Source of the DNA: a virus
Taxonomy: Duplodnaviria > Caudoviricetes
Length of the DNA stretch: 43,877 nucleotides
Direction: 5' to 3' (one strand)
IMG/VR virus record: IMGVR_UViG_3300005613_000124
Span: 1 to 43,877 of that record
Below, piece after piece: positions 25,354-39,402 of the stretch; the stretch's first letter is position 1; each line of letters begins with the position of its first letter. The notes under the pieces were generated by a model that was given only the letters and a program-made list of their open reading frames with translations, made no database searches and was not told the origin of the DNA. The position numbers and the translations under genes are program-made.

Positions 25354-25760
25354 TTACGCTTTCTCGCGGCTCGCTTAGACTCCTCATTTTGTTTGCTGAT
25401 AAAATCGGATTGGATTTTTGCCATCAACAAAATTTTCGAGACAGGCTGATTTTCAAGCCATTCGATTGATGAATCCCAACGTTGTTTACAAAGGCAGAAT
25501 GCCAACTCTAGCCACTGGTCAACTTTCATCACTTTGTCGTTTAACAACTCCGGGCCCATCCAATCGGAGATTGGTTTGACGTAACGGGCCGGTAGATGAT
25601 TTAGATCTTCGTCGTTTAACCCAGCGAGTCTTTGAATAAGAAGAATTGAAAGAAGATTTTGTGTGATGTCGGGATAATCGTTATTGATAAGACTAAAGAA
25701 ATAGTAGTCTTTCGGCATTAACTCCCTGAACCACAAAATGAGATGACCCGCGAGAGTCAC
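25350..25760 (-). CDS. Tail assembly chaperone, frameshift-extension (T) segment
   Basis: Reached in frame from the upstream ORF by a -1 shift at C CCA AAC. Confidence 0.65.
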   Translation of the reverse strand: MTLAGHLILWFRELMPKDYYFFSLINNDYPDITQNLLSILLIQRLAGLNDEDLNHLPARYVKPISDWMGPELLNDKVMKVDQWLELAFCLCKQRWDSSIEWLENQPVSKILLMAKIQSDFISKQNEESKRAARKRK

Positions 25761-26213: not shown

Positions 26214-27104
26214 TCAGTTTACGTTGATTCTAATAGCCGGGTGAGGATTATAGTTTTCGAGAACGAAAGAGTTCTCGGAGAGATTAGCCAACGTTTTATT
26301 CTTGAGCCAATCATCCGACATTGTCATTCTGCACTCATCCTCCCAAGATCGTTGGAGCATCTGTGCAACTAGATGATAGCAATTTTCGTAGATATGCGAA
26401 TTCGCGCTGGGCATGTAAACAAATCGGGCTTTTCGTTGTGTTAGTTGAGCCACGACTTCGAGCATTATCGAGTAGCGCGCGATATCGAGAGGAAAGCCAA
26501 CGACCATATCATTCGACCGAGCGGGAACCATCAGGTCGAGCATTCCGTCGCGTGCTGGCATAAATTGCATTGCCAAATGGCACGGAGGACACCCTGGATC
26601 GATCGCTGTGGGATTGTGAGTGATTATCGTCGCCTGACGAGTGTTTGGTTGAAGATTGAGATTTGTGATTACATTGCCGAGTTGATCGACCGCTTTTTCG
26701 GTCTGCAATGTCTCGTTGGGCACCTCGACACCGGCGGCGGATTGAGGCCACTGACGCCACTGTCGACAGTACGCGGAAGCTCCGAGCTCTCCATTCTCAT
26801 CGGCGAGAAAATCCCAAAAGTGTTTGGCGGGACCGAGGGCACTCACATTCGTATCGAACCCGATGTCGAACAGAAATTCCCGACAGATATTCTTCCAAGG
26901 AAGTTTACGAAGTCGGGTGAGAGGAAAGCCGGAGCGTAAATCGACTCGAACAGAACAACCGAAAGCCGCGCGAGTCTCACCATTTCGACCTTCGAAAATA
27001 TCTCCCGCTTCCATCAAAGCACGAAGATAATTGGCGTAGATCCTGTCCCAATTTTCGGAGATGATCGATTTGCCGTTGAAAGAAAGAGAGTGACCGATGT
27101 TCAT
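26214..27104 (-). CDS. Thymidylate-synthase-family enzyme, probable dCMP methylase or hydroxymethylase
   Basis: PPCH (C175), RSND (196-199), SHIY; Asp207 occupies the position of E. coli ThyA Asn177. Confidence 0.8.
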   Translation of the reverse strand: MNIGHSLSFNGKSIISENWDRIYANYLRALMEAGDIFEGRNGETRAAFGCSVRVDLRSGFPLTRLRKLPWKNICREFLFDIGFDTNVSALGPAKHFWDFLADENGELGASAYCRQWRQWPQSAAGVEVPNETLQTEKAVDQLGNVITNLNLQPNTRQATIITHNPTAIDPGCPPCHLAMQFMPARDGMLDLMVPARSNDMVVGFPLDIARYSIMLEVVAQLTQRKARFVYMPSANSHIYENCYHLVAQMLQRSWEDECRMTMSDDWLKNKTLANLSENSFVLENYNPHPAIRINVN

Positions 27105-27313
27105 GAGAAGATTCGTTTGGAGGTTTCCTGATAGTATTGTTCGAAATCCGGATCGGAGTATCCTGGTGGAAGTTTTATGTACATCGACGCCGCCGTACGA
27201 AGACTTTCCTGTGCCATCGCTCGCATTCCCATGTCGTAACGATCATTGGCGTCATCGACCCAATCGCGGGCATAAATTAAGAGGGCTTCCGCGTCTTGAC
27301 GATGTGGAATCAT
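27101..27313 (-). CDS. Hypothetical protein, 70 aa, coupled between kinase and synthase
   Basis: TGATG overlap at its start and ATGA overlap at its end. Confidence 0.65.
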   Translation of the reverse strand: MIPHRQDAEALLIYARDWVDDANDRYDMGMRAMAQESLRTAASMYIKLPPGYSDPDFEQYYQETSKRIFS

Positions 27314-27885
27314 CAGCAACTTACCAGAGCTTTTTTGCAATTTGTGAAGACACTCGCGGGATTCGGATCTTCCACATTGTGGAGTTGAGTGTTCGGAAAC
27401 ATCGTGATGTTCTCGTAAAAATTGAGAAGTTGTTCCGTGTAGATTTGATGTTCCTGCATCCGAGAAATATACTCATCACGAATTCTCCATAGAGCGGCTC
27501 CGGGCATCTCCTTTTTCACTTCCTCAATGTGAAGCGGAGCGGACCAGGACCACGGACGAAATACACCGAGATGAACAACCGCGGGAACGCTTTCAGCGAT
27601 CTCGATTTCGAGGTCAATAACATCCTCGAAGTGGCCGGCGTTATGACGACGATGTTGTTCTAAAATGTAGGAGCAAGGATATGCCCTGTCGAAGATAGCG
27701 TACTGTTTACCACTGGCTTTCCAATCGGTGATATCCTCCCGATAAAAGTCAAAGATATTTTCCTGATCGGAAGGTGGCGGACCGTGGTGTGCGACGTAAG
27801 TGTTGTTCTCACCCAAATACTTTTCAAGCGAAGAGATAAGAGTGGACTTACCGACCCTATCGGGCCCGGAGACGATGATCAGCAT
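27313..27885 (-). CDS. Deoxynucleoside monophosphate (thymidylate-like) kinase
   Basis: P-loop GPDRVGKST, IFDR motif; start moved to the second ATG because the first abuts the -10 box. Confidence 0.75.
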   Translation of the reverse strand: MLIIVSGPDRVGKSTLISSLEKYLGENNTYVAHHGPPPSDQENIFDFYREDITDWKASGKQYAIFDRAYPCSYILEQHRRHNAGHFEDVIDLEIEIAESVPAVVHLGVFRPWSWSAPLHIEEVKKEMPGAALWRIRDEYISRMQEHQIYTEQLLNFYENITMFPNTQLHNVEDPNPASVFTNCKKALVSC

Positions 27886-27906
27886 AGTTGATTGATTTGT
27901 ATTCAT

Positions 27907-27935
27907 ATTATACGAAGGACGGACTATCGTGTAAA
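27907..27935 (-). promoter_or_regulatory. Sigma70-type promoter for the kinase-synthase operon
   Basis: TTTACA-N17-TATAAT. Confidence 0.7.
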
Positions 27936-28100
27936 GACGAACAGGTCAATTTGGCGACTGTCATGATATTCGAGATTGAGAATGATATCCACCGAACTTC
28001 TCATTTTGCGTTCTTTTCGATCGTAGAACTCCATCGTCGCGTAAGGACGATTTTTAGAGAGTGGAACAAGTGTGTAAAAACAGGCTTTCTTTTTGCTCAT
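27924..28100 (-). CDS. Hypothetical protein, 58 aa (below track cutoff)
   Basis: MSKKKACFYTLVPL...DLFVFTR; ATGA overlap with upstream ORF. Confidence 0.5.
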   Translation of the reverse strand: MSKKKACFYTLVPLSKNRPYATMEFYDRKERKMRSSVDIILNLEYHDSRQIDLFVFTR

Positions 28101-28270
28101 GAGTAAGTGAAAGTAATTGAGAGTTGAATTGGACTCGCGGAGGATCTTTTGATTTTATCGAGTAAGAGATCTTTCATCTTGTTTTGATCCACTCCGCCGA
28201 ATTTGCAAGCTTCTATCAGGTTACATCTTCCTCGGTAGAGAGCATCAACAGATTTTTCTAAATCATTCAA
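28097..28270 (-). CDS. Hypothetical protein, 57 aa, possibly HTH-like (below track cutoff)
   Basis: TTG start overlaps the polymerase stop; MNDLEKSVDALYRGRCNLIEACKFGGVDQNKMKDLL... Confidence 0.5.
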   Translation of the reverse strand: MNDLEKSVDALYRGRCNLIEACKFGGVDQNKMKDLLLDKIKRSSASPIQLSITFTYS

Positions 28271-31176
28271 AGCAGCCCCCTCTCAATCATTTCACCTCGG
28301 GTTTTGAGTTTCTTGACCCATCCGTTTTCCGCCATTTGCGCCATCGAGTACTCGGATCCGTCTGGCTCGTCAGCACCATCCTTGTTGGATGGAGTCACCG
28401 TACATTCGTTCGGAGATTTACGAAGACGGTCGTCGATCGCCACCGCCGAGAAGAAAGCACGGCTAAGGGGAACGTCACACATTTTTACGCTCGATTGAAA
28501 ACGTGCCCACGAGTACAAATGTCCCATTTGAAACACCACACAAAAAGTTTCGGCGTATTTCTCAGGAACCATCCACCAGAGTTCGTCATGAATACTCAAA
28601 ATGAATTGTGCCGGAATTTTGAACTTTCGAGCCAACCAGTGCGTCGCGGTGAGAATCACAGCGAGCATCTCAGCTCCCGACGATTGAATCGTCCAATTGA
28701 TTCGACCGGTGTGAAAGTCATTTCCGACCGCGGATGGACGAAGCGCTGTGGAGATTTTCGTTCCAAGACAAGGAAGCGTCGGGACTTTCGTTCGAAGGGC
28801 GACACCTTCCATGTAGTTGTAGCAGCCACTATCACTTCCACCTTCGTAGAAGCCCTCGGGAGTTTTTCGGCCTTTCTTGAAGGCAAGAGCCTGATTTCCG
28901 AACTGCTTGAGCTGAACGGCGCTTCGATCCTTGTAGGTCTTCTTGATCGTATTCGCGATCGTACGAACACCCGCACCGTAAAGCATTGCGAAACCGACCC
29001 CCTTCGCGACATCTCGGCTTGTATTGATCGTCTTGGCGAGTTTCGTATGGGCGTCCGTTCCCTTCTCCTTGGAGCCTGAGAGCACTGTGTGAGCCATCGG
29101 GGAGGCTCCGATGAACCCTCCCTCCCAGGCATCCGCGTAGATACTGGCGATCTGAAGTTCCTGACCGTCGAAGTCAGCTCCGACGATTTTCCAACCCGGT
29201 GGGCACTGAATTCTGGTTTTGAGTTCGGTGCCGATTCGATGACCTTTGGTCGAACACATGGTGACCATGAGAGACTCCACAGTTCGGCGTGTCACCGTCC
29301 CGTGAGCGATGATCTCCGGCATCATCATGTACCAGCTCTCACCGTGCGGATTGTCGACTTCGAGGAAGATGCGGTCGTGAACCCGTTTACGAACGGAAGT
29401 CCAGTATGAGGTGGCGTTCGCGATATCGAGAGCACGTTTCGCCTCGGGAAGATCACTGCCCAGACGACCGTTCTCCATATCGACGAGAAAATCCTTGGAG
29501 AGAAGTACTCCGACGTTCGCGTTAGTGCCTTTCGGGTGCGGAATTCTCTCGAGTTTGTTCTCGTCCGATAGAAAGCACCAGCCTTTGCTTTTCGTGAGAA
29601 TGATGGGAGAATCCTCCCACTTTAGCTTCAGGAGCAGGTGGGAAACGTTCGCCTTGGTCGTGATACGCTCTTTGGAATCTATCAGATACTTACTCGCCCA
29701 TTTCGGCATATACGCGTATTTCCCCACGTAGCCACGGGGAATCCAGTCGAGTTGTCTCATCCACGCGTCTTTCTTTATCCACGCGTCGGCATTGGTTCTC
29801 CAATCGTAGCCCTGTTTATCAAAGCCTCGAAGAAGATCGACAAATTTGACCGTCTTTTTGTTTTCCAAGCCGGCGATTTTTATTAGCTCGTCCGGATCAT
29901 TCTTAAACGATTCTTGAACCGAAAGAATGTCTTTATCGAGCTCCTTTCTCCACATATCAACATTCTTTTCAATCAGTGAATGGCAGAGTTCTGACATCTC
30001 CCGATTGTATTTGACGAAGACCTTTTCTACATTCTCGATCCACTTTGGCCAATTCTTTGGTGTGGGAATGCGGGAACCATTGAGAAACATGTGTCCGGCG
30101 AGAGCCACCTTCGAAGGTGTCGAAGCGAGATACTTGCTCCAGAGAGCCTGAAAAAGTTCCGAGGTATAGAAGGCGTCAAGCATCGCGTATTCGAGAAGAT
30201 CACGTCGATTCGCGAGTTGATCCATCTCCGTGGCTTTCACGAAGACATCTCGAATGTCCTTATCGGCATCTTCCATACGATGGACTTCCTCGCCGAAATA
30301 CTCTCTCACGGCGGCAACGTGGAAGTTGTAAACGTTCACCAGGGCATTCGTGGAACCTTCATTAGCCCATCGAGGACGGAACTGAAGCTTTCTTTTCTCC
30401 TCTTCCGTGAGGTCTTCCGGGTCTTTTCCGGCGAGAACGTAGAGCCAACGTTGTCCCGACGCGAGACCCGAGACCGCGATATGCGCCGATAGCGTGTCGA
30501 AATAAAAGTTTTCCGGTTCCGTTCTCGTAAGAGAATAACCGTCACGAGCGCGGACGCGATCGTAAGAAATGTTATGTCCAACAACGAATTTTCCATCACC
30601 GAGCGGAATAAGATCATGTTGAGTCCATTCTTCCACCGGAATGGTCGGGTCGCACATCTCGGCGGCGAGCCAAATGTACGAAGCTTTCTCCGATAGAGCG
30701 GTACCGATCACGGGAAAGGCACCGCCAGTAACGAAGGTTTCGGTATCGAAGGTGAAAGCCTGTTCGAGAGGATGAGGTACTTGAGTAATACTCCATTCAT
30801 CCCGGTCTGTCACCCACTCATAGCGAGTCCAACCAGGCTGAAATACGAAATCATCGTATCCCGGAACTTTCGGAAGTTTCGCTGTGGAAAACTCGTCGGC
30901 GAATTTCTTATAGTCATCGACAAACTCTCCCGCCATTCTCTCGAAGTGTTCTTCGATCGTGCCGCCCATGAGGTCCGGAAAGGGAAGATCGCCATCGTAC
31001 AATCCTTCGGGATAGTCGACGGGAACCGGAATGTCAAACCTACTTAAAAGCCGCCTTGACCTTTCGAGCATCATGCTCTTAGGCGCAGGGCGGCTGGCGG
31101 AACCAAAGAGCTTTCGATGAAGACTGTCGTTGAGAACGGGATAGCCTTGCTCGTTTAGTTTCATAGATGGGATCAT
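28267..31176 (-). CDS. Family A DNA polymerase, mitochondrial Pol-gamma-like
   Basis: Exo FDTET, VGHNISYDR, DTLSAHIAVSG; IPHPKG..NVG...SKDF; GTVTRR; GADFDGQE; RINWTIQSS; SIHDE; AFFSAV-ID...TPSN. Confidence 0.93.
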   Translation of the reverse strand: MIPSMKLNEQGYPVLNDSLHRKLFGSASRPAPKSMMLERSRRLLSRFDIPVPVDYPEGLYDGDLPFPDLMGGTIEEHFERMAGEFVDDYKKFADEFSTAKLPKVPGYDDFVFQPGWTRYEWVTDRDEWSITQVPHPLEQAFTFDTETFVTGGAFPVIGTALSEKASYIWLAAEMCDPTIPVEEWTQHDLIPLGDGKFVVGHNISYDRVRARDGYSLTRTEPENFYFDTLSAHIAVSGLASGQRWLYVLAGKDPEDLTEEEKRKLQFRPRWANEGSTNALVNVYNFHVAAVREYFGEEVHRMEDADKDIRDVFVKATEMDQLANRRDLLEYAMLDAFYTSELFQALWSKYLASTPSKVALAGHMFLNGSRIPTPKNWPKWIENVEKVFVKYNREMSELCHSLIEKNVDMWRKELDKDILSVQESFKNDPDELIKIAGLENKKTVKFVDLLRGFDKQGYDWRTNADAWIKKDAWMRQLDWIPRGYVGKYAYMPKWASKYLIDSKERITTKANVSHLLLKLKWEDSPIILTKSKGWCFLSDENKLERIPHPKGTNANVGVLLSKDFLVDMENGRLGSDLPEAKRALDIANATSYWTSVRKRVHDRIFLEVDNPHGESWYMMMPEIIAHGTVTRRTVESLMVTMCSTKGHRIGTELKTRIQCPPGWKIVGADFDGQELQIASIYADAWEGGFIGASPMAHTVLSGSKEKGTDAHTKLAKTINTSRDVAKGVGFAMLYGAGVRTIANTIKKTYKDRSAVQLKQFGNQALAFKKGRKTPEGFYEGGSDSGCYNYMEGVALRTKVPTLPCLGTKISTALRPSAVGNDFHTGRINWTIQSSGAEMLAVILTATHWLARKFKIPAQFILSIHDELWWMVPEKYAETFCVVFQMGHLYSWARFQSSVKMCDVPLSRAFFSAVAIDDRLRKSPNECTVTPSNKDGADEPDGSEYSMAQMAENGWVKKLKTRGEMIERGLL

Positions 31177-31202
31177 CTGATAGATTGTTTGTTGATATTA
31201 TG

Positions 31203-31364
31203 TCAGGCGGCGACGGGTTGTGAAATTTCACGGAGATCCTCCGCGATCTCAGCCGCCTGTTGCATCATCAACTCGGCTTCGTATTCCATACCAATGCGGT
31301 CAAGCTCATTCGCCCTATCGGCGAGAAAGTGAATGCGGTCGATTGCGAGATCACAGAAGTCCAT
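31203..31364 (-). CDS. Hypothetical protein, 53 aa, ending QPVAA (below track cutoff)
   Basis: MDFCDLAIDRIHFLADRANELDRIGMEYEAELMMQQAAEIAEDLREISQPVAA; follows a palindrome promoter. Confidence 0.6.
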   Translation of the reverse strand: MDFCDLAIDRIHFLADRANELDRIGMEYEAELMMQQAAEIAEDLREISQPVAA

Positions 31365-31387
31365 TTCTTTCGGCGTTGTACTTGATT

Positions 31388-31443
31388 ATTATACACCATC
31401 CGGAGCTCAATGGGAGCTCGAGTGAACAGTTCTTAAACTGTCC
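31388..31443 (-). promoter_or_regulatory. Palindrome-type promoter, copy 1
   Basis: GGACAGTT-TAAG-AACTGTTC, 30 nt, TATAAT. Confidence 0.75.
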
Positions 31444-31657
31444 TTGAGACGTGAAGTTTTTGACAGATTTCGATATCCTTCAAAGCTTGCTCAAAGGACT
31501 TCGCATTGCCATTGTAGACTTCGGAGTCTTTATATCCAAATGTGAGAACCCATCGATATTGATCGACGTGCTCACTCTTCCAAATCTGAAGAACCGGTTT
31601 TGTTTCGAGATCCGCCGCGAAGGGCGTAGCCCGAGTCTCTTCTCCAGTTATATCCAT
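31433..31657 (-). CDS. Hypothetical protein, about 74 aa
   Basis: Start uncertain; placed at MDITGEE to reduce overlap with the upstream ORF. Confidence 0.45.
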   Translation of the reverse strand: MDITGEETRATPFAADLETKPVLQIWKSEHVDQYRWVLTFGYKDSEVYNGNAKSFEQALKDIEICQKLHVSRTV

Positions 31658-31973
31658 TTGAGAGAATAACGGCATCCTCAGCTGGAATGTGCCATAAGGT
31701 CTTACCAATAGTTTCATCAAGCAGACCGATGTCGAAGTTTTCCTCAAGCTCGATTAGAAAGTCCCGATCGTCATTCCACTTTCGGTGAAGACGTACGCGC
31801 CATTTCATGTACTCGGTTTGAACCTTTTTCGTTCTCTTTGTCTGCCATTGCGCGTACAAATTTTCGAGAGCATCGACCAGGCCCGCGCCCGCTCTCATCT
31901 TGAGCGCGCCGAGCTTACGATTCTCGGCGACCGTGTCCTCCTTCCAATTTTCGAGATTTCGAATGTCACTCAT
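31572..31973 (-). CDS. Hypothetical protein, 133 aa
   Basis: Start overlaps the stop of the upstream ORF. Confidence 0.55.
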   Translation of the reverse strand: MSDIRNLENWKEDTVAENRKLGALKMRAGAGLVDALENLYAQWQTKRTKKVQTEYMKWRVRLHRKWNDDRDFLIELEENFDIGLLDETIGKTLWHIPAEDAVILSNGYNWRRDSGYALRGGSRNKTGSSDLEE

Positions 31974-32805
31974 TCGGTTCGAGCCTCGTCTTCAAAGCCT
32001 GTTTATCTAATTCTGGAATTTTTGAAGTTTCGCGAATCTCATCTTGATATCGACGCACGGATTCCATACCGTCGAAGATTCGTGGAAATGAGAGCGCTCG
32101 ATTGGCCGGAAAGTCCCTCCAGGCGATCATCTCCTGTTGAGCGAAAGGTTCGATGTCATCCCACTCCTCGTTTCTCTCTCCGTAAATCATGGGAAGAGCA
32201 TCGTTCAACCACCATTCGGCGACGGTCGGTTGTTTGATACGCCACATCTCGGAATCTATCAGAGATTTTTCGCATGTGGCACGTAAATGCTTGACCCACT
32301 GTCGACCGCGGTAGATCACATCCAAAGCGCCGATGGGCACCTCGTCGAGAAGATATTCCTCGTCGCCTTCCATGATTTTTTCGTATACGACCGGAAAGAG
32401 AATCGATTGTGATACGAGTTCAAAATCCGGAGCGGTATCTCCCGCGTTCGACCAGTTCGAGATATTGAAGAGTATGGCGTCGAAAATCGCGAGTGTTTTC
32501 GCTCGAGAGACCGCGAGAATGTCGATATCATCCCCTGATAAGTTTCCTCCTCCCTTTTCGAGTTTCTTCTCGAGTTCTTTGATCTTTCGCTCCGCACGAC
32601 GCAATTCTCCCCGTGCCGATCGTTCCACGCTTTTCTTATACGCCTCAACCGCGAGAAGAATACGATTCTCACTCTCATCGAGTTTCGCCACCACATCCTC
32701 GAGTTTGGCGAATTTGGTTTGAAGCTCGTTTTTGAAAGAATTGAGTTGGCTTTCGACCGCCGATTTCTTTGAGAGAAATCTCCTCAATTCATACTCAATT
32801 GCCAT
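31966..32805 (-). CDS. Hypothetical protein with N-terminal coiled coil, 279 aa
   Basis: Heptad-rich first ~85 aa. Confidence 0.65.
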   Translation of the reverse strand: MAIEYELRRFLSKKSAVESQLNSFKNELQTKFAKLEDVVAKLDESENRILLAVEAYKKSVERSARGELRRAERKIKELEKKLEKGGGNLSGDDIDILAVSRAKTLAIFDAILFNISNWSNAGDTAPDFELVSQSILFPVVYEKIMEGDEEYLLDEVPIGALDVIYRGRQWVKHLRATCEKSLIDSEMWRIKQPTVAEWWLNDALPMIYGERNEEWDDIEPFAQQEMIAWRDFPANRALSFPRIFDGMESVRRYQDEIRETSKIPELDKQALKTRLEPNE

Positions 32806-32863
32806 AGTCGTTTAGTGATTTCCAGGTAAATTAAGGTCAGCGGCGGCGATTAGTATACATTCC

Positions 32864-33400
32864 CTACGAGACCAACATCTCTGCCGATACTTGAGATAGA
32901 GAGTTTCGAATTTTGTTTCGAGATTTTTCCTTCGGGCCGATTCTAAAAACTGAAGGTAGAGGTTGTCCAATTCGCCATCCCGCATGATACCTTTCGAGAA
33001 ACTTTACAAGAGCTTTGTCGTTGATTTCGTGAGGTTTCGGGCGATCTCCTTTGACGAAAACTCGCCACGAATCGTGCGCGTACTGACCGCAACCGTAGAG
33101 GTCGCGAGCATCCTTTCGGTCCCAAACCAAGTACTGTTCCGACATCTTTCGAAGTCGCTTCGCTTTAGTTCGAGAGAGACCGTGGGGCGCGAGCAACTCT
33201 TCCAACGAAGAATCGGACGTCGATAGACTTTCGGCGTCGGGCCAACTATCAAAAAGCGCCCAGAGCGTGTCGTCCCAATCATCCGTGCGTTTGCTTTGAT
33301 TGAGAAGAATCGCCGCGACAAGTATGTGCCACTCGGTCGGAAGTTGTTCCTGAATGAGCCAGCCGTCCCGTGTGTAAGGTGATCGTGGTTTCGAAATCAT
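32864..33400 (-). CDS. MBD4-like HhH DNA glycosylase
   Basis: PRSP..LIQE..W-ILVA-ILLN, WP-AE, LLAP-GL, L-G-GQYAHDSWRVF, D-AL-K follow the human MBD4 catalytic domain motif by motif. Confidence 0.85.
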   Translation of the reverse strand: MISKPRSPYTRDGWLIQEQLPTEWHILVAAILLNQSKRTDDWDDTLWALFDSWPDAESLSTSDSSLEELLAPHGLSRTKAKRLRKMSEQYLVWDRKDARDLYGCGQYAHDSWRVFVKGDRPKPHEINDKALVKFLERYHAGWRIGQPLPSVFRIGPKEKSRNKIRNSLSQVSAEMLVS

Positions 33401-34043: not shown

Positions 34044-34748
34044 TCAAAAGTAAGAGATGTGACCGGATTCGATTTCGTAAACCGGGAGCTTTCCGTCCTT
34101 ATTACCGCAGCAACCGTCAAGCACGATGGACGACTCGGAGAAGTGAACGACGTGATAATGTCCGGCGACTCGAACCCACTGTCGCTCGCTCTCGGATTCC
34201 CACCATTTAACGCGCTCTCGAGTCTCGTAATTGACTTTTCCGTAGAGCATCAGATCCTTAGCTTTGCGAGGAATATCGTCTCCAAGAATCTCCCGTCCGT
34301 GCCTCTCATCAACGGCACCTCCGACCCAAGTCGGAAAGTACGCGTGGGCGCAACGATACTCGCGCATCTCACTGTCCTTAAAGATGTATCCGTACGGACA
34401 GGATTCCAACCAACGTAAGAGATTCTCGCGGTCGACATCCGATTCCTCGAACTCCTTGATCGTCCGACCGAGTTCCGGAACTAAGTCGACGCGAACGCGA
34501 TTTCCTCGAAGATAGCGACGCAACTTATCCTGGTGATTCGAATTAAGAACCACCGCTCCAAATTCGAATTGGAATTGACGCACGAGATTGTACACCTCGA
34601 CACTATCCGATAGCTCGGAACGGGAATCGAAAAGATCTCCGAGAAAGATGACGAGAGTGTTGTCATCCGAGTATTTTACAATAGTGGACAGAGCTTCGTC
34701 CAATTTCGCGGACTGCGAGTGAACGTCACCGATAAGATAAGTTTTCAT
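34044..34748 (-). CDS. Calcineurin-like metallophosphoesterase
   Basis: GDVH, GDLFD, SNH, HA, GHYH; start at the ATGA overlap with the kinase stop. Confidence 0.85.
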   Translation of the reverse strand: MKTYLIGDVHSQSAKLDEALSTIVKYSDDNTLVIFLGDLFDSRSELSDSVEVYNLVRQFQFEFGAVVLNSNHQDKLRRYLRGNRVRVDLVPELGRTIKEFEESDVDRENLLRWLESCPYGYIFKDSEMREYRCAHAYFPTWVGGAVDERHGREILGDDIPRKAKDLMLYGKVNYETRERVKWWESESERQWVRVAGHYHVVHFSESSIVLDGCCGNKDGKLPVYEIESGHISYF

Positions 34749-35185
34749 GGAGTGTCGAATTCCGATAGAATTGAGATAAAGTTTTGATCGATGGAGTTCC
34801 ACATGCGGCGAATTACATCCTCGGGAACCTGACGGTCACGAGCCGCGTTTCGCTTCAGACAACAGTCGAGGGACGGATGAACGATCACCGGTTGAATCTC
34901 GTCGTAACCATTGATGCGTAATACGCTTAGCGTATACTTACGACTTTTGGCTCTCGCATGAGTCGCATCGACGATTATGGTACGACCGGACTCGGCGATC
35001 TCACTCACTCTAGCGACAAATCGCTGACGAAGTTCCTCCCAAGGTCCCTGCACGCTCTCGTCACCCCAAAGCTCCTTACGAAGAGTGTCAAGACAGACGA
35101 CTTCCGCATCTTCGATCCGGGAGATCTGATTGGCTTTGGTTGACTTCCCGGAGCCCGGAGCTCCGATCATGATATATGCTAACAT
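34745..35185 (-). CDS. Polynucleotide kinase-like P-loop protein
   Basis: GAPGSGKST, D-LR, DATH, R---R-R-VP lid. Confidence 0.8.
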   Translation of the reverse strand: MLAYIMIGAPGSGKSTKANQISRIEDAEVVCLDTLRKELWGDESVQGPWEELRQRFVARVSEIAESGRTIIVDATHARAKSRKYTLSVLRINGYDEIQPVIVHPSLDCCLKRNAARDRQVPEDVIRRMWNSIDQNFISILSEFDTP

Positions 35186-35376
35186 CAGACGCAGTGGAGA
35201 TTGAATTTACGAACGGCTTCGACGCGACGGTCACGGGCGAAGATCCAACGACGACGAAGAGTTTTATACTTGACGTCAGCGACGTTCGGTCGATAAGCTC
35301 GAAACTCATCGAACGCGATTCTCTCCGCGCGAACGTAATTGCGGATCTCGACTGGGAACTTGTTGATTTGTGTCAT
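35185..35376 (-). CDS. Hypothetical basic protein, 63 aa
   Basis: Start MTQINK 6 nt after a -10 box; TGATG coupling to the kinase. Confidence 0.55.
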   Translation of the reverse strand: MTQINKFPVEIRNYVRAERIAFDEFRAYRPNVADVKYKTLRRRWIFARDRRVEAVRKFNLHCV

Positions 35377-35382
35377 ATAGAC

Positions 35383-35439
35383 ACTATACAGGATGAGAGG
35401 AGGCTTTGGGGGATTTAGTGGACACTTTTCCAAGTGTCA
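35383..35439 (-). promoter_or_regulatory. Palindrome-type promoter, copy 2 (leaderless)
   Basis: TGACACTT-GGAA-AAGTGTCC, 31 nt, TATAGT, 6 nt, ATG. Confidence 0.75.
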
Positions 35440-36150
35440 CAATGCCTCCCGAAGGGCCAAGCCGGTCACGACTCCCGTGAAATAGGATCCGGTATCGATT
35501 CGAAGCACGGTGCCGGTCGGGGTTTCGAACTCGAGGGGCTCCCCACCTCGGCACACCGTGTGGCCGTTGACCGTGAGGTGCTCAGGGGAGTACCCCACCA
35601 CGTCCCTGTCCCAATACAAGGTCATAGGGTCCTGCTCCCTCAGGGGCGTCTGAGGAGCCACAGAGCCGTGGGTCACGAGGAGCTTAAGTTCCCGATCGTT
35701 CCATCTCACCGGATTCGGATGTTCGTACCAAAGTGGTAAACCGTACAGCCAAGCCCACAGTTTCTCGTCAGTGATAAACTGAAAGTCGTCGTACATTCCT
35801 CCGTTTTGGAGCCACAGAGAGATCAGACGGTGATCCGTGTCTCCGACCACTGTGCTGTGAGCGTCGAGGATCATTCGCTCGTGATTTCCCATCAGGCACA
35901 TCGCGGAAGACAACCCGAATTTCTCCGGGTTCGTACACATCGTGTGAACGGTCGAAATCACTTCGGCTCCTTCACTTCCTCGATCAAGAAGGTCACCCAC
36001 GAATACGACTTGGCAATTCGTGTCGGAAATATGCTCGATCAACTCTTTAAGAGCGGTGGCGCAACCGTGAATGTCCCCGACGACAACCACGGATTTTTCG
36101 TCGAGATCGTGATCGGTTAAGAGTACACCTTTTTGCTTTAGTTCTTTCAT
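35437..36150 (-). CDS. Ser/Thr protein phosphatase-like metallophosphoesterase
   Basis: GDIHG, GDLLDRG, GNHE, W--NGG, HG, GHT, IDTG; start moved to MKELKQ. Confidence 0.85.
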   Translation of the reverse strand: MKELKQKGVLLTDHDLDEKSVVVVGDIHGCATALKELIEHISDTNCQVVFVGDLLDRGSEGAEVISTVHTMCTNPEKFGLSSAMCLMGNHERMILDAHSTVVGDTDHRLISLWLQNGGMYDDFQFITDEKLWAWLYGLPLWYEHPNPVRWNDRELKLLVTHGSVAPQTPLREQDPMTLYWDRDVVGYSPEHLTVNGHTVCRGGEPLEFETPTGTVLRIDTGSYFTGVVTGLALREAL

Positions 36151-36156
36151 ACTATC

Positions 36157-36212
36157 ATTATACAGCATCTGGTGGCTTGTGCCAAAGAAAAAGGACACTT
36201 TTTCAAGTGTCC
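36157..36212 (-). promoter_or_regulatory. Palindrome-type promoter, copy 3 (leaderless)
   Basis: Perfect GGACACTT-GAAA-AAGTGTCC, 30 nt, TATAAT, 6 nt, ATG. Confidence 0.8.
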
Positions 36213-36403
36213 ATACCCGTGGAGAGTCTCCACCTCCAATTGTCCTTTCGTCTAAGCACACTCGCCGCGCGAAGGGTGGATTCCTCGGACGTACTTTTGA
36301 CCTCTCCGATCAACGCTCCGTAGGGATCGATAACCTTCGCGTGATACATCACCTTATGCGGGGATGTGTGATCCTCCCAGACCTCATACTTGTATCCGGT
36401 CAT
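36203..36403 (-). CDS. Hypothetical protein, 66 aa
   Basis: ATGA overlap with the upstream gene. Confidence 0.55.
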   Translation of the reverse strand: MTGYKYEVWEDHTSPHKVMYHAKVIDPYGALIGEVKSTSEESTLRAASVLRRKDNWRWRLSTGMDT

Positions 36404-36801
36404 TTGTCCACGTTGAAGACGGGAGCGGGGATGTTGCCCTGAGAAGGAATCATATAGACCGTCTTATTACCATTTTTGTTCCCCTCTTCCAGTCCGGTGA
36501 TCCAGAGATAAGACAGGTAGTCGTTGTTGCCTTTGAGACTATCTCCGATGATCTGGTTAGCTTGAGCGACACCTTTCGCGCGTTCGATCTCGGCGAGCGC
36601 GAGTTCCTTCGCCGAATCAAGCTTCGCCTTCGCCTCGAGAACCGCGACCTGACGAGTGAACTCAGCCTCCTGCAATTGCGCTTTACCATTGAGAGTTTTT
36701 GTGTAAACGCCGTACTGTGGCAAACCGAACGCCAATCCGCCTACGACAATCGCGCCAAGAAGGCCGACGATGATAAAGTTTTGAGTAGTGTTGTTTCGCA
36801 T
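36400..36801 (-). CDS. Membrane-anchored coiled-coil protein (SPFH/band-7-like fragment)
   Basis: N-terminal TM helix; AE-ERAKG-A-AN-II--SL...YL-YLWI pattern. Confidence 0.65.
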   Translation of the reverse strand: MRNNTTQNFIIVGLLGAIVVGGLAFGLPQYGVYTKTLNGKAQLQEAEFTRQVAVLEAKAKLDSAKELALAEIERAKGVAQANQIIGDSLKGNNDYLSYLWITGLEEGNKNGNKTVYMIPSQGNIPAPVFNVDK

Positions 36802-36806
36802 GTGGG

Positions 36807-37010
36807 TTAAAGAAAAAGATCCCAGAATTGGTCGCCGAGAGCGAGAGATGTCTGTATTGTAGCGAATTCACCGGTGGATGTGAAACCGGACTCCTTCCAC
36901 CGAAGATAGGCGCATCGAAAGACTCCCGCCCAGATTCTCTGTTTAGAAGAGTCGAAAAATGATCTCCGGGTCGCCGCGAATTGTGCTCTTTCGAGATCGT
37001 TTGAAAACAT
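36807..37010 (-). CDS. Hypothetical protein, 67 aa
   Basis: Fills the gap exactly between neighbours. Confidence 0.5.
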   Translation of the reverse strand: MFSNDLERAQFAATRRSFFDSSKQRIWAGVFRCAYLRWKESGFTSTGEFATIQTSLALGDQFWDLFL

Positions 37011-37012
37011 GG

Positions 37013-37642
37013 TTACACTTCAAGATCAAGGTACGAAAGTTCTCCGAGGCCAATAAATTCGACTCCATCGAATACGGTGTGATGATCAAAATGCCAGTGA
37101 CCGTGAACCCAGAGATCGGGTTTGTGAATGTGAAGAAGATTGTCGAAAAATTGTCTCGTGATACTCGAAATGTCGTACTTCACCTTATTCTTTTGACGAA
37201 GAACGTGATTTACGACCTCATCCGGGCACTCGTGAGTCACAACTACCGAGGGTTTTACCATATCATAGACTTCGGTCAAGATGAGAAATTCCGAATACGT
37301 AAGTTCTTCCCTCTCCCACCAATCGAAACCCTCCGTACGAAGATGCTTATCGATAGACAGAGCCCCGCCAACACAGAATATGCTGTCGTCAATGACTTCA
37401 CCGTCCGAGATCCAAAATGGATGAGTACGGCAGTGCGTGGGGTTATCATGATTGCCTCTGATGAATCTGTGATCTCCTTTCGCCATCGCGTCGTGAGGTG
37501 GACGCGAGTACGACTCGGTACGAGGATTGTAAAATCCGATGCCGAAATCCCCGACCTGAATTGATCGGGGACAACCCTGTATGATTTTCTTGTACCGATT
37601 CCACTTTCCGTGAACGTCACCGATAAATCTAATTTTTGTCAT
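37013..37642 (-). CDS. Metallophosphoesterase
   Basis: GDVHG, QVGDFG, GNHD, VGGA-SID, THECP, W-HGHWH. Confidence 0.85.
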   Translation of the reverse strand: MTKIRFIGDVHGKWNRYKKIIQGCPRSIQVGDFGIGFYNPRTESYSRPPHDAMAKGDHRFIRGNHDNPTHCRTHPFWISDGEVIDDSIFCVGGALSIDKHLRTEGFDWWEREELTYSEFLILTEVYDMVKPSVVVTHECPDEVVNHVLRQKNKVKYDISSITRQFFDNLLHIHKPDLWVHGHWHFDHHTVFDGVEFIGLGELSYLDLEV

Positions 37643-37857
37643 GTGTCAATCCAAACCCATCCTAATAGCAACTTCGTCATCTTACGATGGAACCAATTGG
37701 GTTTCTCGGTAACGTGAACGTGGAAGTTTCCGTTCATGCGCCAACACCCCACAGTGTTAGGGGCCTCCACCTTGAACCCAGAGAGGGTCGGGGTGTTAGC
37801 GTCATATCCGCCGGAGAAACTTTCTCCACCGCCATCGTCGATGTTTAAGTCACCCAT
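37639..37857 (-). CDS. Hypothetical protein, about 72 aa
   Basis: Overlaps the ligase stop and the phosphoesterase start. Confidence 0.5.
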   Translation of the reverse strand: MGDLNIDDGGGESFSGGYDANTPTLSGFKVEAPNTVGCWRMNGNFHVHVTEKPNWFHRKMTKLLLGWVWIDT

Positions 37858-38932
37858 TGAAGATCTCATTGAACTTTTTCTCATTTTGATTCATGAGCCA
37901 CTCGGTGAATCCCCGGGTCTTTCCCGATCGAATGGAGAACATCGCCCCACTCACTTTCGGGTGATGATGTAAGACTTGCGCGGCGAATTCCTTTTGGTTC
38001 ATGTGAGAGTATTCACGAACGAATCCTTCGACGAAGAAAGCGGCATCTTCAAGCACGGCGAGCCGCTGTTGGAAATCGACCTTAAACTCCGGAAAGTAAG
38101 TCCAAAATTCCACGAGATCATCGTTTCGCCAGAGCTCAAAAAAGCTCGGGTCACCGTTGCCTTTGACACGGTGCATTTGAACGTAAGACTCACCTTTGAC
38201 CTTGATTCGATTCCAGTTTTTGTCGATCACGACAAATCCCTCGTGTTGCGAACCTTCGCGCTCATTGGCCCATTCGATCAACTTTCCGATATCGGACCAG
38301 TGACCGTATTCGGTCGCGATCGCGAAGAGTCCCGAGAAGGACTCGACATAGATCTCATCCATGGATCGAGCGTCCCGCGCTCCCAAAAGAGGCAAATAGT
38401 CGAACTTATGATCGACAACAACCTTATTGTCGGGAGTGCACAGCTCAAAGATATAGATGACATCTTCATCGAGTTTTTCGCGAGAGTAATTCGCGTCGTA
38501 AGCACGCCAGAACAGATCCTCGAAAGTCATATCCATCTCGCCGAAACGAATGTTGGCTCCGACAGTTCCGGAGGTGGATACGATCCAACCGTACTCATCG
38601 TGGTGAAAGAGCTTGATCAGGCTTCCGTCGTGCTTCTCGAAAACGCGAGCGGACTTCCAGTCGATTTCCGGCGCCTGAAATTCTCCGGCGTTGAAAAATC
38701 GATCGAAGGCGTAAGCCACCACATCGTAACGATCGCCGTCCGAGCGCTCGACCACGGCGCCTCGACACACGCGAACGATGTCGGAGGACTTATCGGCGGT
38801 CGGGCCGTACTTCAAGCAGAACAGTTCGGGATATCGAGCGTCGTTGGTCACACGGATTCCGTGATCCACCAACGAGTCGATACCGTGGGTGTTTAACCAG
38901 TTTTCGAGAAATTGAACGGAAGTATTTTCCAT
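37850..38932 (-). CDS. RNA ligase (T4 Rnl1-like)
   Basis: CRG, FDRFFN, motif I EKHDGS, FEL...N-VV, EGFVV, R-K-K; start moved to MENTSV. Confidence 0.88.
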   Translation of the reverse strand: MENTSVQFLENWLNTHGIDSLVDHGIRVTNDARYPELFCLKYGPTADKSSDIVRVCRGAVVERSDGDRYDVVAYAFDRFFNAGEFQAPEIDWKSARVFEKHDGSLIKLFHHDEYGWIVSTSGTVGANIRFGEMDMTFEDLFWRAYDANYSREKLDEDVIYIFELCTPDNKVVVDHKFDYLPLLGARDARSMDEIYVESFSGLFAIATEYGHWSDIGKLIEWANEREGSQHEGFVVIDKNWNRIKVKGESYVQMHRVKGNGDPSFFELWRNDDLVEFWTYFPEFKVDFQQRLAVLEDAAFFVEGFVREYSHMNQKEFAAQVLHHHPKVSGAMFSIRSGKTRGFTEWLMNQNEKKFNEIFNG

Positions 38933-38980
38933 GATTCTAGTATACTGTGCCTTGAGGGGCTTTGGGGGCTCGAGTGGACA
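38926..38980. repeat. 55-bp exact direct repeat, copy A (part of palindrome promoter copy 4)
   Basis: Identical to 39154-39208; contains TATACT, 6 nt, ATG of the ligase on the minus strand. Confidence 0.95.
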
Positions 38981-39007
38981 GTTCCTCAACTGGCTCCTCA
39001 GGCTAGC

Positions 39008-39160
39008 TCAGCAACCATTGAGAATATTCCAGAATTGCTTAGAATTGGCTCCAGGAATGTGCGGAAGTTTCTTCTCCCAATATCCTGTAACGTGACGATA
39101 CCATGCTTTCAGAACAGTGATGTCGTTTAAGTTTTTGGTCATAATCGTGTTCGTTTCCAT
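39008..39160 (-). CDS. Hypothetical protein, 50 aa, between the direct repeats (below track cutoff)
   Basis: METNTIMTKNLNDITVLKAWYRHVTGYWEKKLPHIPGANSKQFWNILNGC. Confidence 0.6.
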   Translation of the reverse strand: METNTIMTKNLNDITVLKAWYRHVTGYWEKKLPHIPGANSKQFWNILNGC

Positions 39161-39208
39161 GATTCTAGTATACTGTGCCTTGAGGGGCTTTGGGGGCTCG
39201 AGTGGACA
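39154..39208. repeat. 55-bp exact direct repeat, copy B (part of palindrome promoter copy 5)
   Basis: Identical to 38926-38980; palindrome GAGTGGACA...TGTCCACTC spans 39200-39227. Confidence 0.95.
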
Positions 39209-39402
39209 CTTTCTCGACTGTCCACTCCTCTCGGATTTTCCCTTTCGGCGGTCCCTTCCTCAAGTGGTACGACTGTACTATCCCCCGGCCCTTGCGCCGC
39301 AAGGGGTTTGGCGCTGTCAAAAATCGTTTTTTCCGCGACGAGACCCCTCAACGATAGATACTACGTCGGTCCCGCCCTCGAAATCGAAAAAAGCTAAACT
39401 GT

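Follow-up and report, generated by a model that had tools for sequence, protein, structure and literature searches.

Why would a phage keep a thymidylate synthase (TS) homolog that carries aspartate at the pyrimidine-specificity position, couple it to a nucleotide kinase and carry an MBD4-like glycosylase in the same region? The locus that raises this question lies between positions 26,214 and 33,400 of the virus record IMGVR_UViG_3300005613_000124 of IMG/VR, whose 43,877 nucleotides, analysed in full, are called the window throughout. An original prediction read the locus as a system for writing and repairing modified cytosine, composed of a synthase specific for deoxycytidine monophosphate (dCMP), a kinase, a Pol-gamma polymerase and an MBD4-like glycosylase. 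The underlying observation was confirmed and the interpretation is partly supported: the module is real and conserved and of a known kind, built on a TS clade that is so far uncharacterised. As best explanation we tentatively propose that hydroxymethyl-dCMP is made, phosphorylated and incorporated in place of cytosine, and that an optional MBD4-like glycosylase removes the deaminated base opposite guanine. The features of the locus, including its open reading frames (ORFs), are as follows, with protein lengths in amino acids (aa).

26214..27104, minus strand: TS homolog of the Asp177 clade, predicted dCMP C5-modifying enzyme (296 aa; PF00303, E 1.3e-51)
26484..26486, minus strand: GAT codon of Asp207, at the pyrimidine-specificity position held by Asn177 in ThyA (alignment to E. 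coli ThyA)
27101..27313, minus strand: 70-aa ORF with stop/start overlaps with kinase and TS
27313..27906, minus strand: P-loop deoxynucleoside monophosphate (dNMP)-kinase-like protein, start probably at 27885 (phrog_761, E 4e-8)
27924..28100, minus strand: conserved small ORF of 58 aa between polymerase and kinase
28097..28270, minus strand: conserved small ORF of 57 aa between polymerase and kinase
28267..31176, minus strand: Pol-gamma (mitochondrial-type) DNA polymerase (PF18136, E 1e-58)
32972..33400, minus strand: MBD4-like HhH-GPD glycosylase domain of about 140 aa, part of a 178-aa ORF (32864-33400)
32812..32985, minus strand: 57-aa ORF in another frame over the tail of the MBD4-like ORF (51-72% identity in 6 relatives)

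All long genes of the window lie on the minus strand. The kinase stop codon TGA (27315-27313) overlaps the ATG of the 70-aa ORF (TGATG), and the stop of that ORF overlaps the TS start (ATGA), in line with the translational coupling that had been claimed for the three genes. The operon is indeed downstream of the polymerase, though not directly, as 360 bp occupied by the two small conserved ORFs lie between them. The MBD4-like gene, placed 1.7 kb upstream of the polymerase, lies 1687 bp from the polymerase start and 5.8 kb from the TS gene, and its catalytic Asp is kept.

The left half of the window holds capsid, portal, baseplate and tail genes, and CheckV rates the record, which consists of the window alone, as 20% complete. 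A relative, G001, with a polymerase 81% identical to that of the window, is near-complete (150 kb, direct terminal repeats, CheckV 69%) and encodes two photosystem II reaction-centre proteins. Judged by polymerase type, structural genes and the photosystem genes of G001, the window is a piece of a Pol-gamma cyanomyovirus genome. The stretch is present whole or in part in 20 public runs from 11 studies. In each of three other DNA runs, contigs span all 30 of 30 bins between positions 25500 and 34500, with no indel listed. The conservation of the Asp in related loci argues against a chance finding. Transitions prevail among the variants of these other runs, a spectrum for which a control is lacking; because 431 differences went undisplayed, invariance of the Asp codon across the runs is not claimed. 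RNA contigs span 19 of the 30 bins, which does not by itself demonstrate transcription.

Is the TS homolog directed at dCMP? Its Asp207 (codon 26486-26484, GAT), in the motif RSND-x7-D, aligns with Asn177 of E. coli ThyA as had been noted, and the protein thus lacks the Asn of a canonical ThyA. In other respects it is a member of the TS superfamily with TS fold, catalytic Cys and the phosphate-binding Arg, Ser, His and Tyr, retaining the ThyA residues R21, E58, W80, Y94, R126, C146, H147, R166, S167, D169, H207 and Y209, with the changes F62D, L143C, N177D, S180R and D205N. In its own numbering the residues discussed below are C175 and H176 (of PPCH), Trp97 (= W80), Cys172 (= 143) and Asp199 (= 169). 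An AlphaFold2 model has the TS fold at a mean predicted local distance difference test score of 72.7, with active-site loops below 50, for which reason the pocket geometry was not read from it. The Asp177 equivalent is found in all 35 loci with the site displayed among 36 related IMG/VR loci. A tree built with FastTree from 61 TS homologs out of 161 aligned, in which 35 of 116 Asn-type representatives were kept, places the window-type sequences in one clade (support 0.985) with S-TIM5 inside and the TS of Xp12, T4 gp42 and RB69 gp48 outside, the deep nodes being weakly supported. The best matches from cultured phages are those of four TIM5-like cyanophages at 38% identity, with Asp in both that were aligned; identity to ThyA is 28%, to T4 gp42 23% and to Xp12 TS 23%. 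The clade gene of S-TIM5 is labelled as plain ThyA in GenBank, and no assay of it was found in the literature searched.

The company kept by the TS gene strengthens this assignment. A member of the kinase family is present in 28 of 29 TS-clade records, the only exception being a fragment that breaks off where the TS begins, and the family is absent from Xp12 and from the Synechococcus phage S-CBWM1. The P-loop motif GxDRVGKST and a DR motif are invariant in 13 of 13 sequences, which together with the match to phrog_761 thymidylate kinase (E 4e-8) and neighbours from thymidylate-kinase and deoxynucleoside-kinase families in the Atlas marks a phage dNMP kinase, of predicted substrate; lying next to the TS, it is a candidate kinase for modified dCMP. 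Among 50,697 cultured records it matches only the TIM5 group and phage XG4, in which a T4 gp42-like gene is its immediate neighbour. A pyrophosphohydrolase-like gene (phrog_12184, weakly similar to PRA-PH) occurs in G001, in the sister-lineage locus L089 and in most TIM5-like loci, not in S-CBWM1, and matches only the TIM5 group among the same cultured records. ThyX is present in G001, S-TIM5, G016 and G020, so that dTMP can be made there without the ThyA homolog. A dCMP deaminase also occurs in relatives; in G001 it lies about 78 kb from the TS gene. Since an Asp-clade TS, a kinase in nearly every record and a ThyX for dTMP in the nearest near-complete relative occur together, a pathway for C5-modified dCMP is likely, and the predicted dCMP-directed synthase with a kinase of its own holds up on this comparative evidence. 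Such a pathway, in which an Asp-type phage TS modifies dCMP, the product is phosphorylated and dCTP is destroyed, is described in the accessible part of 10.1101/2024.12.05.627091, according to which five of seven tested enzymes made 5-methyl-dCMP (5mdCMP) and a route from 5mdCTP to dTTP is proposed for Xp12. The writing half of the combination, of which the original prediction knew no description, is in this sense already known.

The 70-aa ORF has homologs 31-77% identical that lie beside the TS or beside a kinase paralog; it is kept in the lineage of the window, was not detected in TIM5-like loci, and gave no family in domain and profile searches and no match at a score of at least 0.9 in the Atlas. 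Two relatives, G009 and G010, have two kinase paralogs (L114:14981-15448 and L115:4104-4571), of which one remains behind the polymerase with the small ORF, the TS having moved away. The polymerase was considered as a part of the module and rejected. It has matches in 11 cultured records, the best, at 49% identity, being S-CBWM1, which has Pol-gamma and no match for TS, kinase, pyrophosphohydrolase or MBD4-like gene. Pol-gamma is a lineage marker and not specific to the modification.

How could the parts act together? The window itself encodes an Asp177-type TS with catalytic Cys, D169 and phosphate-binding Arg intact, coupled to a dNMP-kinase-like gene; the relatives contribute ThyX and dCMP deaminase for dTMP, and the pyrophosphohydrolase restricted to the TS clade. 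In the proposed pathway the TS likely takes dCMP as substrate and converts it to 5-hydroxymethyl-dCMP, which the adjacent kinase likely phosphorylates; the pyrophosphohydrolase would destroy dCTP and Pol-gamma would insert the modified nucleotide, with evasion of host nucleases as the purpose. The lineages may then decorate the base differently, with glucosyl, furanosyl or phosphate groups. Deamination would create 5-hydroxymethyluracil opposite guanine (hmU:G), at which the MBD4-like enzyme may start base-excision repair; host uracil-DNA glycosylase would not clear this pair. That modified dCMP reaches the DNA at all appears probable. The weakest step is hydroxymethyl rather than methyl; provided that the modified nucleotide does reach the DNA, we consider hydroxymethyl the somewhat likelier product.

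The published residue rules point the other way. According to the accessible part of Lee et al. 2026 (PMC13326640), N177D selects dCMP, hydroxymethylation is associated with Asp or Glu at 143, and D169N is the sign of a hydroxylase. Judged on these markers, the window enzyme is predicted to act on dCMP and not to hydroxylate it, and it would be classed as a methylase. The RB69, DLP3 and RL38JI 5-hydroxy-dCMP synthases share Asp177 with it, but the D169N diagnostic of RB69 gp48-type hydroxylases is absent, Asp199 standing in its place. The residue-143 rule is, however, firmly defined on its acidic side only, because Xp12 TS has Asn at 143. The original argument for methylation, that the retained PPCH and the ThyA Trp favour it, did not survive: the Trp also occurs in T4 gp42, and the motif of the Xp12 methylase is PCP, without the His, so that these residues do not discriminate.

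The foremost competing account follows from the same markers: the TS would be a dCMP methylase, 5-methylcytosine (5mC) would replace cytosine as in Xp12, and the glycosylase would remove T from T:G. The published methylase signature (D177, non-acidic 143, D169) is fully present, most Asp-type enzymes assayed gave 5mdCMP, and the window TS is nearer to ThyA than to T4 gp42. The accessible parts of 10.1101/2024.12.05.627091 and PMC8256090 give Xp12 DNA as fully 5mC, so that the MBD4-like gene inserted independently into the cassette of that phage stands in a proven 5mC genome. The likeness extends to the pyrophosphohydrolase and deaminase, which the Xp12/PaMx74 5-methyl-dCMP cassette shares with relatives of the window, and the deaminase of G001 is 43-45% identical to that of Xp12; it is nearer (56%) to that of S-CBWM1, which has no such TS. 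Unlike the cassette, the window carries a TS on another branch, with PCH versus PCP, and its clade has ThyX, another kinase family, no TS-deaminase-DHFR block and no dihydrofolate reductase (DHFR). Xp12 is moreover a Pol-A siphovirus versus the Pol-gamma myovirus of the window, and its glycosylase gene lies inside the cassette. TS-type methylation oxidises folate and hence needs DHFR, yet DHFR was found in none of seven TS-clade records searched, as compared with 12 of 12 Xp12-type cassettes examined.

The partner genes of the relatives speak for a hydroxyl. A homolog of T-even alpha-glucosyltransferase is found in 4 of 31 records, and in L012 and L089 a glycosyltransferase-like gene and a UDP-galactopyranose mutase gene lie upstream of kinase and TS, an arrangement shared with RL38JI. 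These sister lineage clusters (L089:2653-10876 and L012:3-4769) both carry kinase and TS, L089 adding the pyrophosphohydrolase and a ParB-FkbM fusion; a PDB search with the 340-aa glycosyltransferase-like protein returned no match. The close relatives G001 (L022:288-1202) and G004 (L134:11301-12215) have a stand-alone gene of the 5-hydroxymethyldeoxyuridine DNA kinase family (PF18723), for which no partner transferase was seen in G001. A search for TET, which had no positive control, found none in five records; the methyltransferase-TET route described in the accessible part of Burke et al. 2021 (PMC8256090) is a different one. A divergent C5-methyltransferase-like (Dcm-like) gene with the catalytic PC motif is present in 14 of 14 TIM5-like records searched and in the close relative G003, thus in 15 clade records, and would find no substrate in fully methylated DNA. 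Given the missing DHFR and partners in relatives that need or accompany a base hydroxyl, the gene content leans to hydroxymethylcytosine, contrary to the residue-143 rule, and the methylase account appears the less likely one.

The Dcm-like gene deserves a closer look. It adjoins the TS gene in the S-TIM5 group, and G001 has the module without it; at motif I three of four loci (L002:6409-7626, L133:7203-8420, L244:5363-6580 and L246:11304-12584) read IPLVGG or IPLIGG. Elsewhere among cultured phages, homologs occur in XG4 and phage G alone. The XG4 operon combines the kinase family, a 50%-identical T4 gp42 homolog, two glycosyltransferase-like genes and the Dcm-like gene, and in phage G a D143/D177 TS and two alpha-glucosyltransferases are encoded in its vicinity. 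Because these clusters bear canonical hydroxymethylase signatures, presence of the Dcm-like gene does not imply unmodified cytosine. As an observation in its own right, the family sits where unmodified cytosine should be scarce, in TIM5-like phages, XG4 and phage G. The XG4 cluster (L245:26597-28221 and L244:100-7552), which spans the ends of an unannotated record and also holds a PAPS-reductase-like gene and a nucleotidyltransferase, is a candidate for an undescribed cytosine hypermodification.

Several points weigh against hydroxymethylcytosine in the window phage. Position 143 is Cys and not the Asp or Glu of known hydroxymethylases, so that the published rule predicts methylation. The hydroxyl-using partners are found in relatives and none in the 20%-complete window, and 147 ORFs scanned in G001 gave no glycosyltransferase match. 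Some cyanobacteria own a DHFR, as did the Synechococcus elongatus control, which may make a phage copy unnecessary. His147 is kept, as it is not in T4 gp42, Xp12 and RB69, and this His hinders the use of dCMP in engineered TS. S-TIM5 DNA is said to be methylated only at cytosines preceded by a purine, which full substitution at the level of the nucleotide pool would not give; this reported pattern is predicted by neither simple model. Codon-position composition gave no modification signature, and dinucleotide, 4-mer and third-codon-position context tests gave no usable signal (S-TIM5 +0.70 versus -0.15 for TIM5-like G016, with controls in the same range).

The T4 pathway (gp42, gp1 kinase, gp56 dCTPase and glucosyltransferases) resembles the window in Asp177 and in the logic of synthase, kinase and pyrophosphohydrolase, and the sister lineages of the window carry alpha-glucosyltransferase homologs. 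The window enzyme differs from gp42 in its low identity, in Cys versus Asp at 143, in keeping His147 and in a full-length ThyA-like C-terminus; it does not group with gp42 in the tree, whose deep nodes are weak, and neither the window nor G001 has a glucosyltransferase. Closest is the S-TIM5 group (Aurunvirus), which shares the TS clade and its signature, the kinase and pyrophosphohydrolase families, ThyX and Pol-gamma; unlike in the window, its genes are dispersed, the Dcm-like gene lies beside the TS, and an alpha-glucosyltransferase is present; its TS is 37% identical to that of the window. More speculatively, and in our view rather doubtful, the clade with D62, C143, H147, D177, R180 and N205 could be a separately evolved hydroxymethylase without acidic 143, with the Dcm-like enzyme tailoring modified cytosine and the MBD4-like family recruited repeatedly as proofreaders. 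If so, action of the Dcm-like enzyme on modified cytosine would reinterpret the purine-C-only pattern reported for S-TIM5, and phage MBD4-like glycosylases would form a large family that has gone undescribed and has on separate occasions (in the window lineage and in Xp12) been recruited to proofread a modified base. A hydroxymethyl product, if true, would break the published residue-143 rule from which the base chemistry of phages is predicted, and Pol-gamma cyanophages would join the viruses with modified cytosine.

Does the glycosylase belong to the modification? In a PDB search all 15 matches of the ORF were MBD4 (best E 6e-15), and Q17, Y107 and D128, which we take to be Q449, Y540 and the catalytic D560 of MBD4, do not vary among the 20 sequences compared, which represent three lineages of phages, so that the protein belongs to the MBD4 family and is a predicted glycosylase. 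It shares with mammalian MBD4 the whole catalytic domain, but it stands alone, without methyl-CpG-binding or further domain in the 178-aa ORF, and has Gln35 at the position of the Arg finger (presumably R468 in animal MBD4). The last 39 or so codons of the ORF are overprinted by the 57-aa gene at 32812-32985, which is better conserved in six relatives (51-72% identity versus 37-49% for the overlapped tail), and the glycosylase domain is therefore taken to be about 140 aa long. Six close relatives have the gene in the slot between orf192 and orf279, whereas five TS-bearing contigs of more distant kin have nothing there.

The description as eukaryote-type does not fit: the family is common in phages, with 599 matching stretches in 27 of 64 parts of IMG/VR and about 1500 estimated in total, and the window copy groups with phage copies as sister to a marine clade (support 0.964). 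Transfer from eukaryotes was considered and is not supported, the deep nodes of the tree being unresolved. GTDB genomes gave eight MBD4-like loci, all on contigs of metagenome-assembled genomes. Matches found in cultured phages are confined to S-TIM54 and the Xp12 group, besides one weak match in an archaeal virus. The Xp12 protein QNN97216.1, annotated as hypothetical (L126:26974-27456, minus strand), is MBD4-like (PDB MBD4, E 5e-14), and its gene lies directly upstream of pyrophosphohydrolase, TS, deaminase and DHFR, an arrangement repeated in Donnerlittchen and in 9 of 14 IMG/VR loci. Because the Xp12 branch is separate from that of the window, the association of MBD4-like genes with modified cytosine would have two or more origins; alternatively, it arose only in Xp12 and the gene is a neighbour of the module by chance in the window. 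No description of a phage MBD4-like gene was found in the literature searched, which covered titles and the beginnings of abstracts and few subscription papers.

Alternatively, the MBD4-like gene may serve general phage repair (of U:G, T:G or oxidised pyrimidines) and have landed in the replication region untied to the TS module, which would be compatible with either chemistry. Most MBD4-like genes come from large marine phages, with FolE close by in 50 of 138 loci, QueE in 55 of 138, and phosphoribosyltransferase and 5'-3' exonuclease genes as other usual neighbours. No TS turned up in two sets of 36 and 25 marine viral fragments with the gene, and no C5-methyltransferase in sets of 31 and 25, albeit all these fragments are incomplete, at most 61% complete. 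Within the TS clade the gene is present in 8 of 28 records and missing in 20, among them the complete S-TIM5 and G016; S-TIM54 is the only cultured member of the TIM5 group that has it, and the window-type copy of TIM5-like G020 may reflect transfer or a chimeric assembly. The six relatives with the arrangement of the window are one lineage and so count as one event, and the slot of PaMx74 lacks the gene. A fixed four-part system, as originally proposed, is not supported by this distribution, and the co-occurrence of Asp-type TS and MBD4-like genes that had been suggested as a check is seen in part of the clade and in Xp12-type loci and not in the incomplete marine fragments.

Against general repair stand the separate branch, whose members lie within the Xp12-type cassette in 11 records, and a fusion of MBD4 to a kinase of the dNMP type in P0202; a second fusion, of MBD4 to pyrophosphohydrolase in P0200, counts for little, as a frameshift may have joined the two parts (the search for fusions covered proteins of at least 290 aa). 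Phage G has a fusion of dNMP kinase and a uracil-DNA-glycosylase-family domain (L246:22928-23923 and L249:1468-2514) about 1.5 kb from its D143/D177 TS homolog. The link to modified cytosine thus has independent, if incomplete, support. A role in general repair alone seems rather improbable, and it is fairly probable that the glycosylase serves the modified DNA, for which the best reading of the gene distribution is a putative optional accessory. Phages with C5-modified cytosine are known, and the literature searched holds no account of how such phages deal with deamination that is faster or escapes repair; the MBD4-like gene is a candidate. The unannotated homolog in cultured Xp12 and the clade TS in cultured S-TIM5 make the glycosylase role and the TS product testable. 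The remaining possibility, that modified dCMP mostly stays out of DNA (deaminated to feed dTTP, or partly used) while a sequence-specific C5-methyltransferase protects the genome, has a precedent in the dTTP route proposed for Xp12 and would suit the PC-motif enzyme of the TIM5-like phages and G003 and the pattern reported for S-TIM5, which would fit an enzyme acting on the polymer, but is very improbable, as ThyX already supplies dTMP, the TS is accompanied by a kinase and a pyrophosphohydrolase dedicated to it, the Dcm-like family also occurs in the hydroxymethylase-type clusters of XG4 and phage G, and G001 has the module without it.

Some further observations concern neighbouring subjects. 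The FolE/QueE neighbourhood of the marine MBD4-like genes (L049, L055, L061, L080 and similar) hints at 7-deazaguanine or pterin pathways. In the window, one block at 34044-38989 holds three metallophosphoesterases, a polynucleotide-kinase-like gene and a T4-type RNA ligase, suggesting a kit for healing RNA or DNA ends, and a short stretch upstream of the RNA ligase ORF (39143-39214) is 79% identical to part of that ORF. Over the whole window (1-43877) CTAG and GGCC are strongly rare, at 0.53 and 0.56 of expectation, so that avoidance of restriction sites persists despite the predicted modification.

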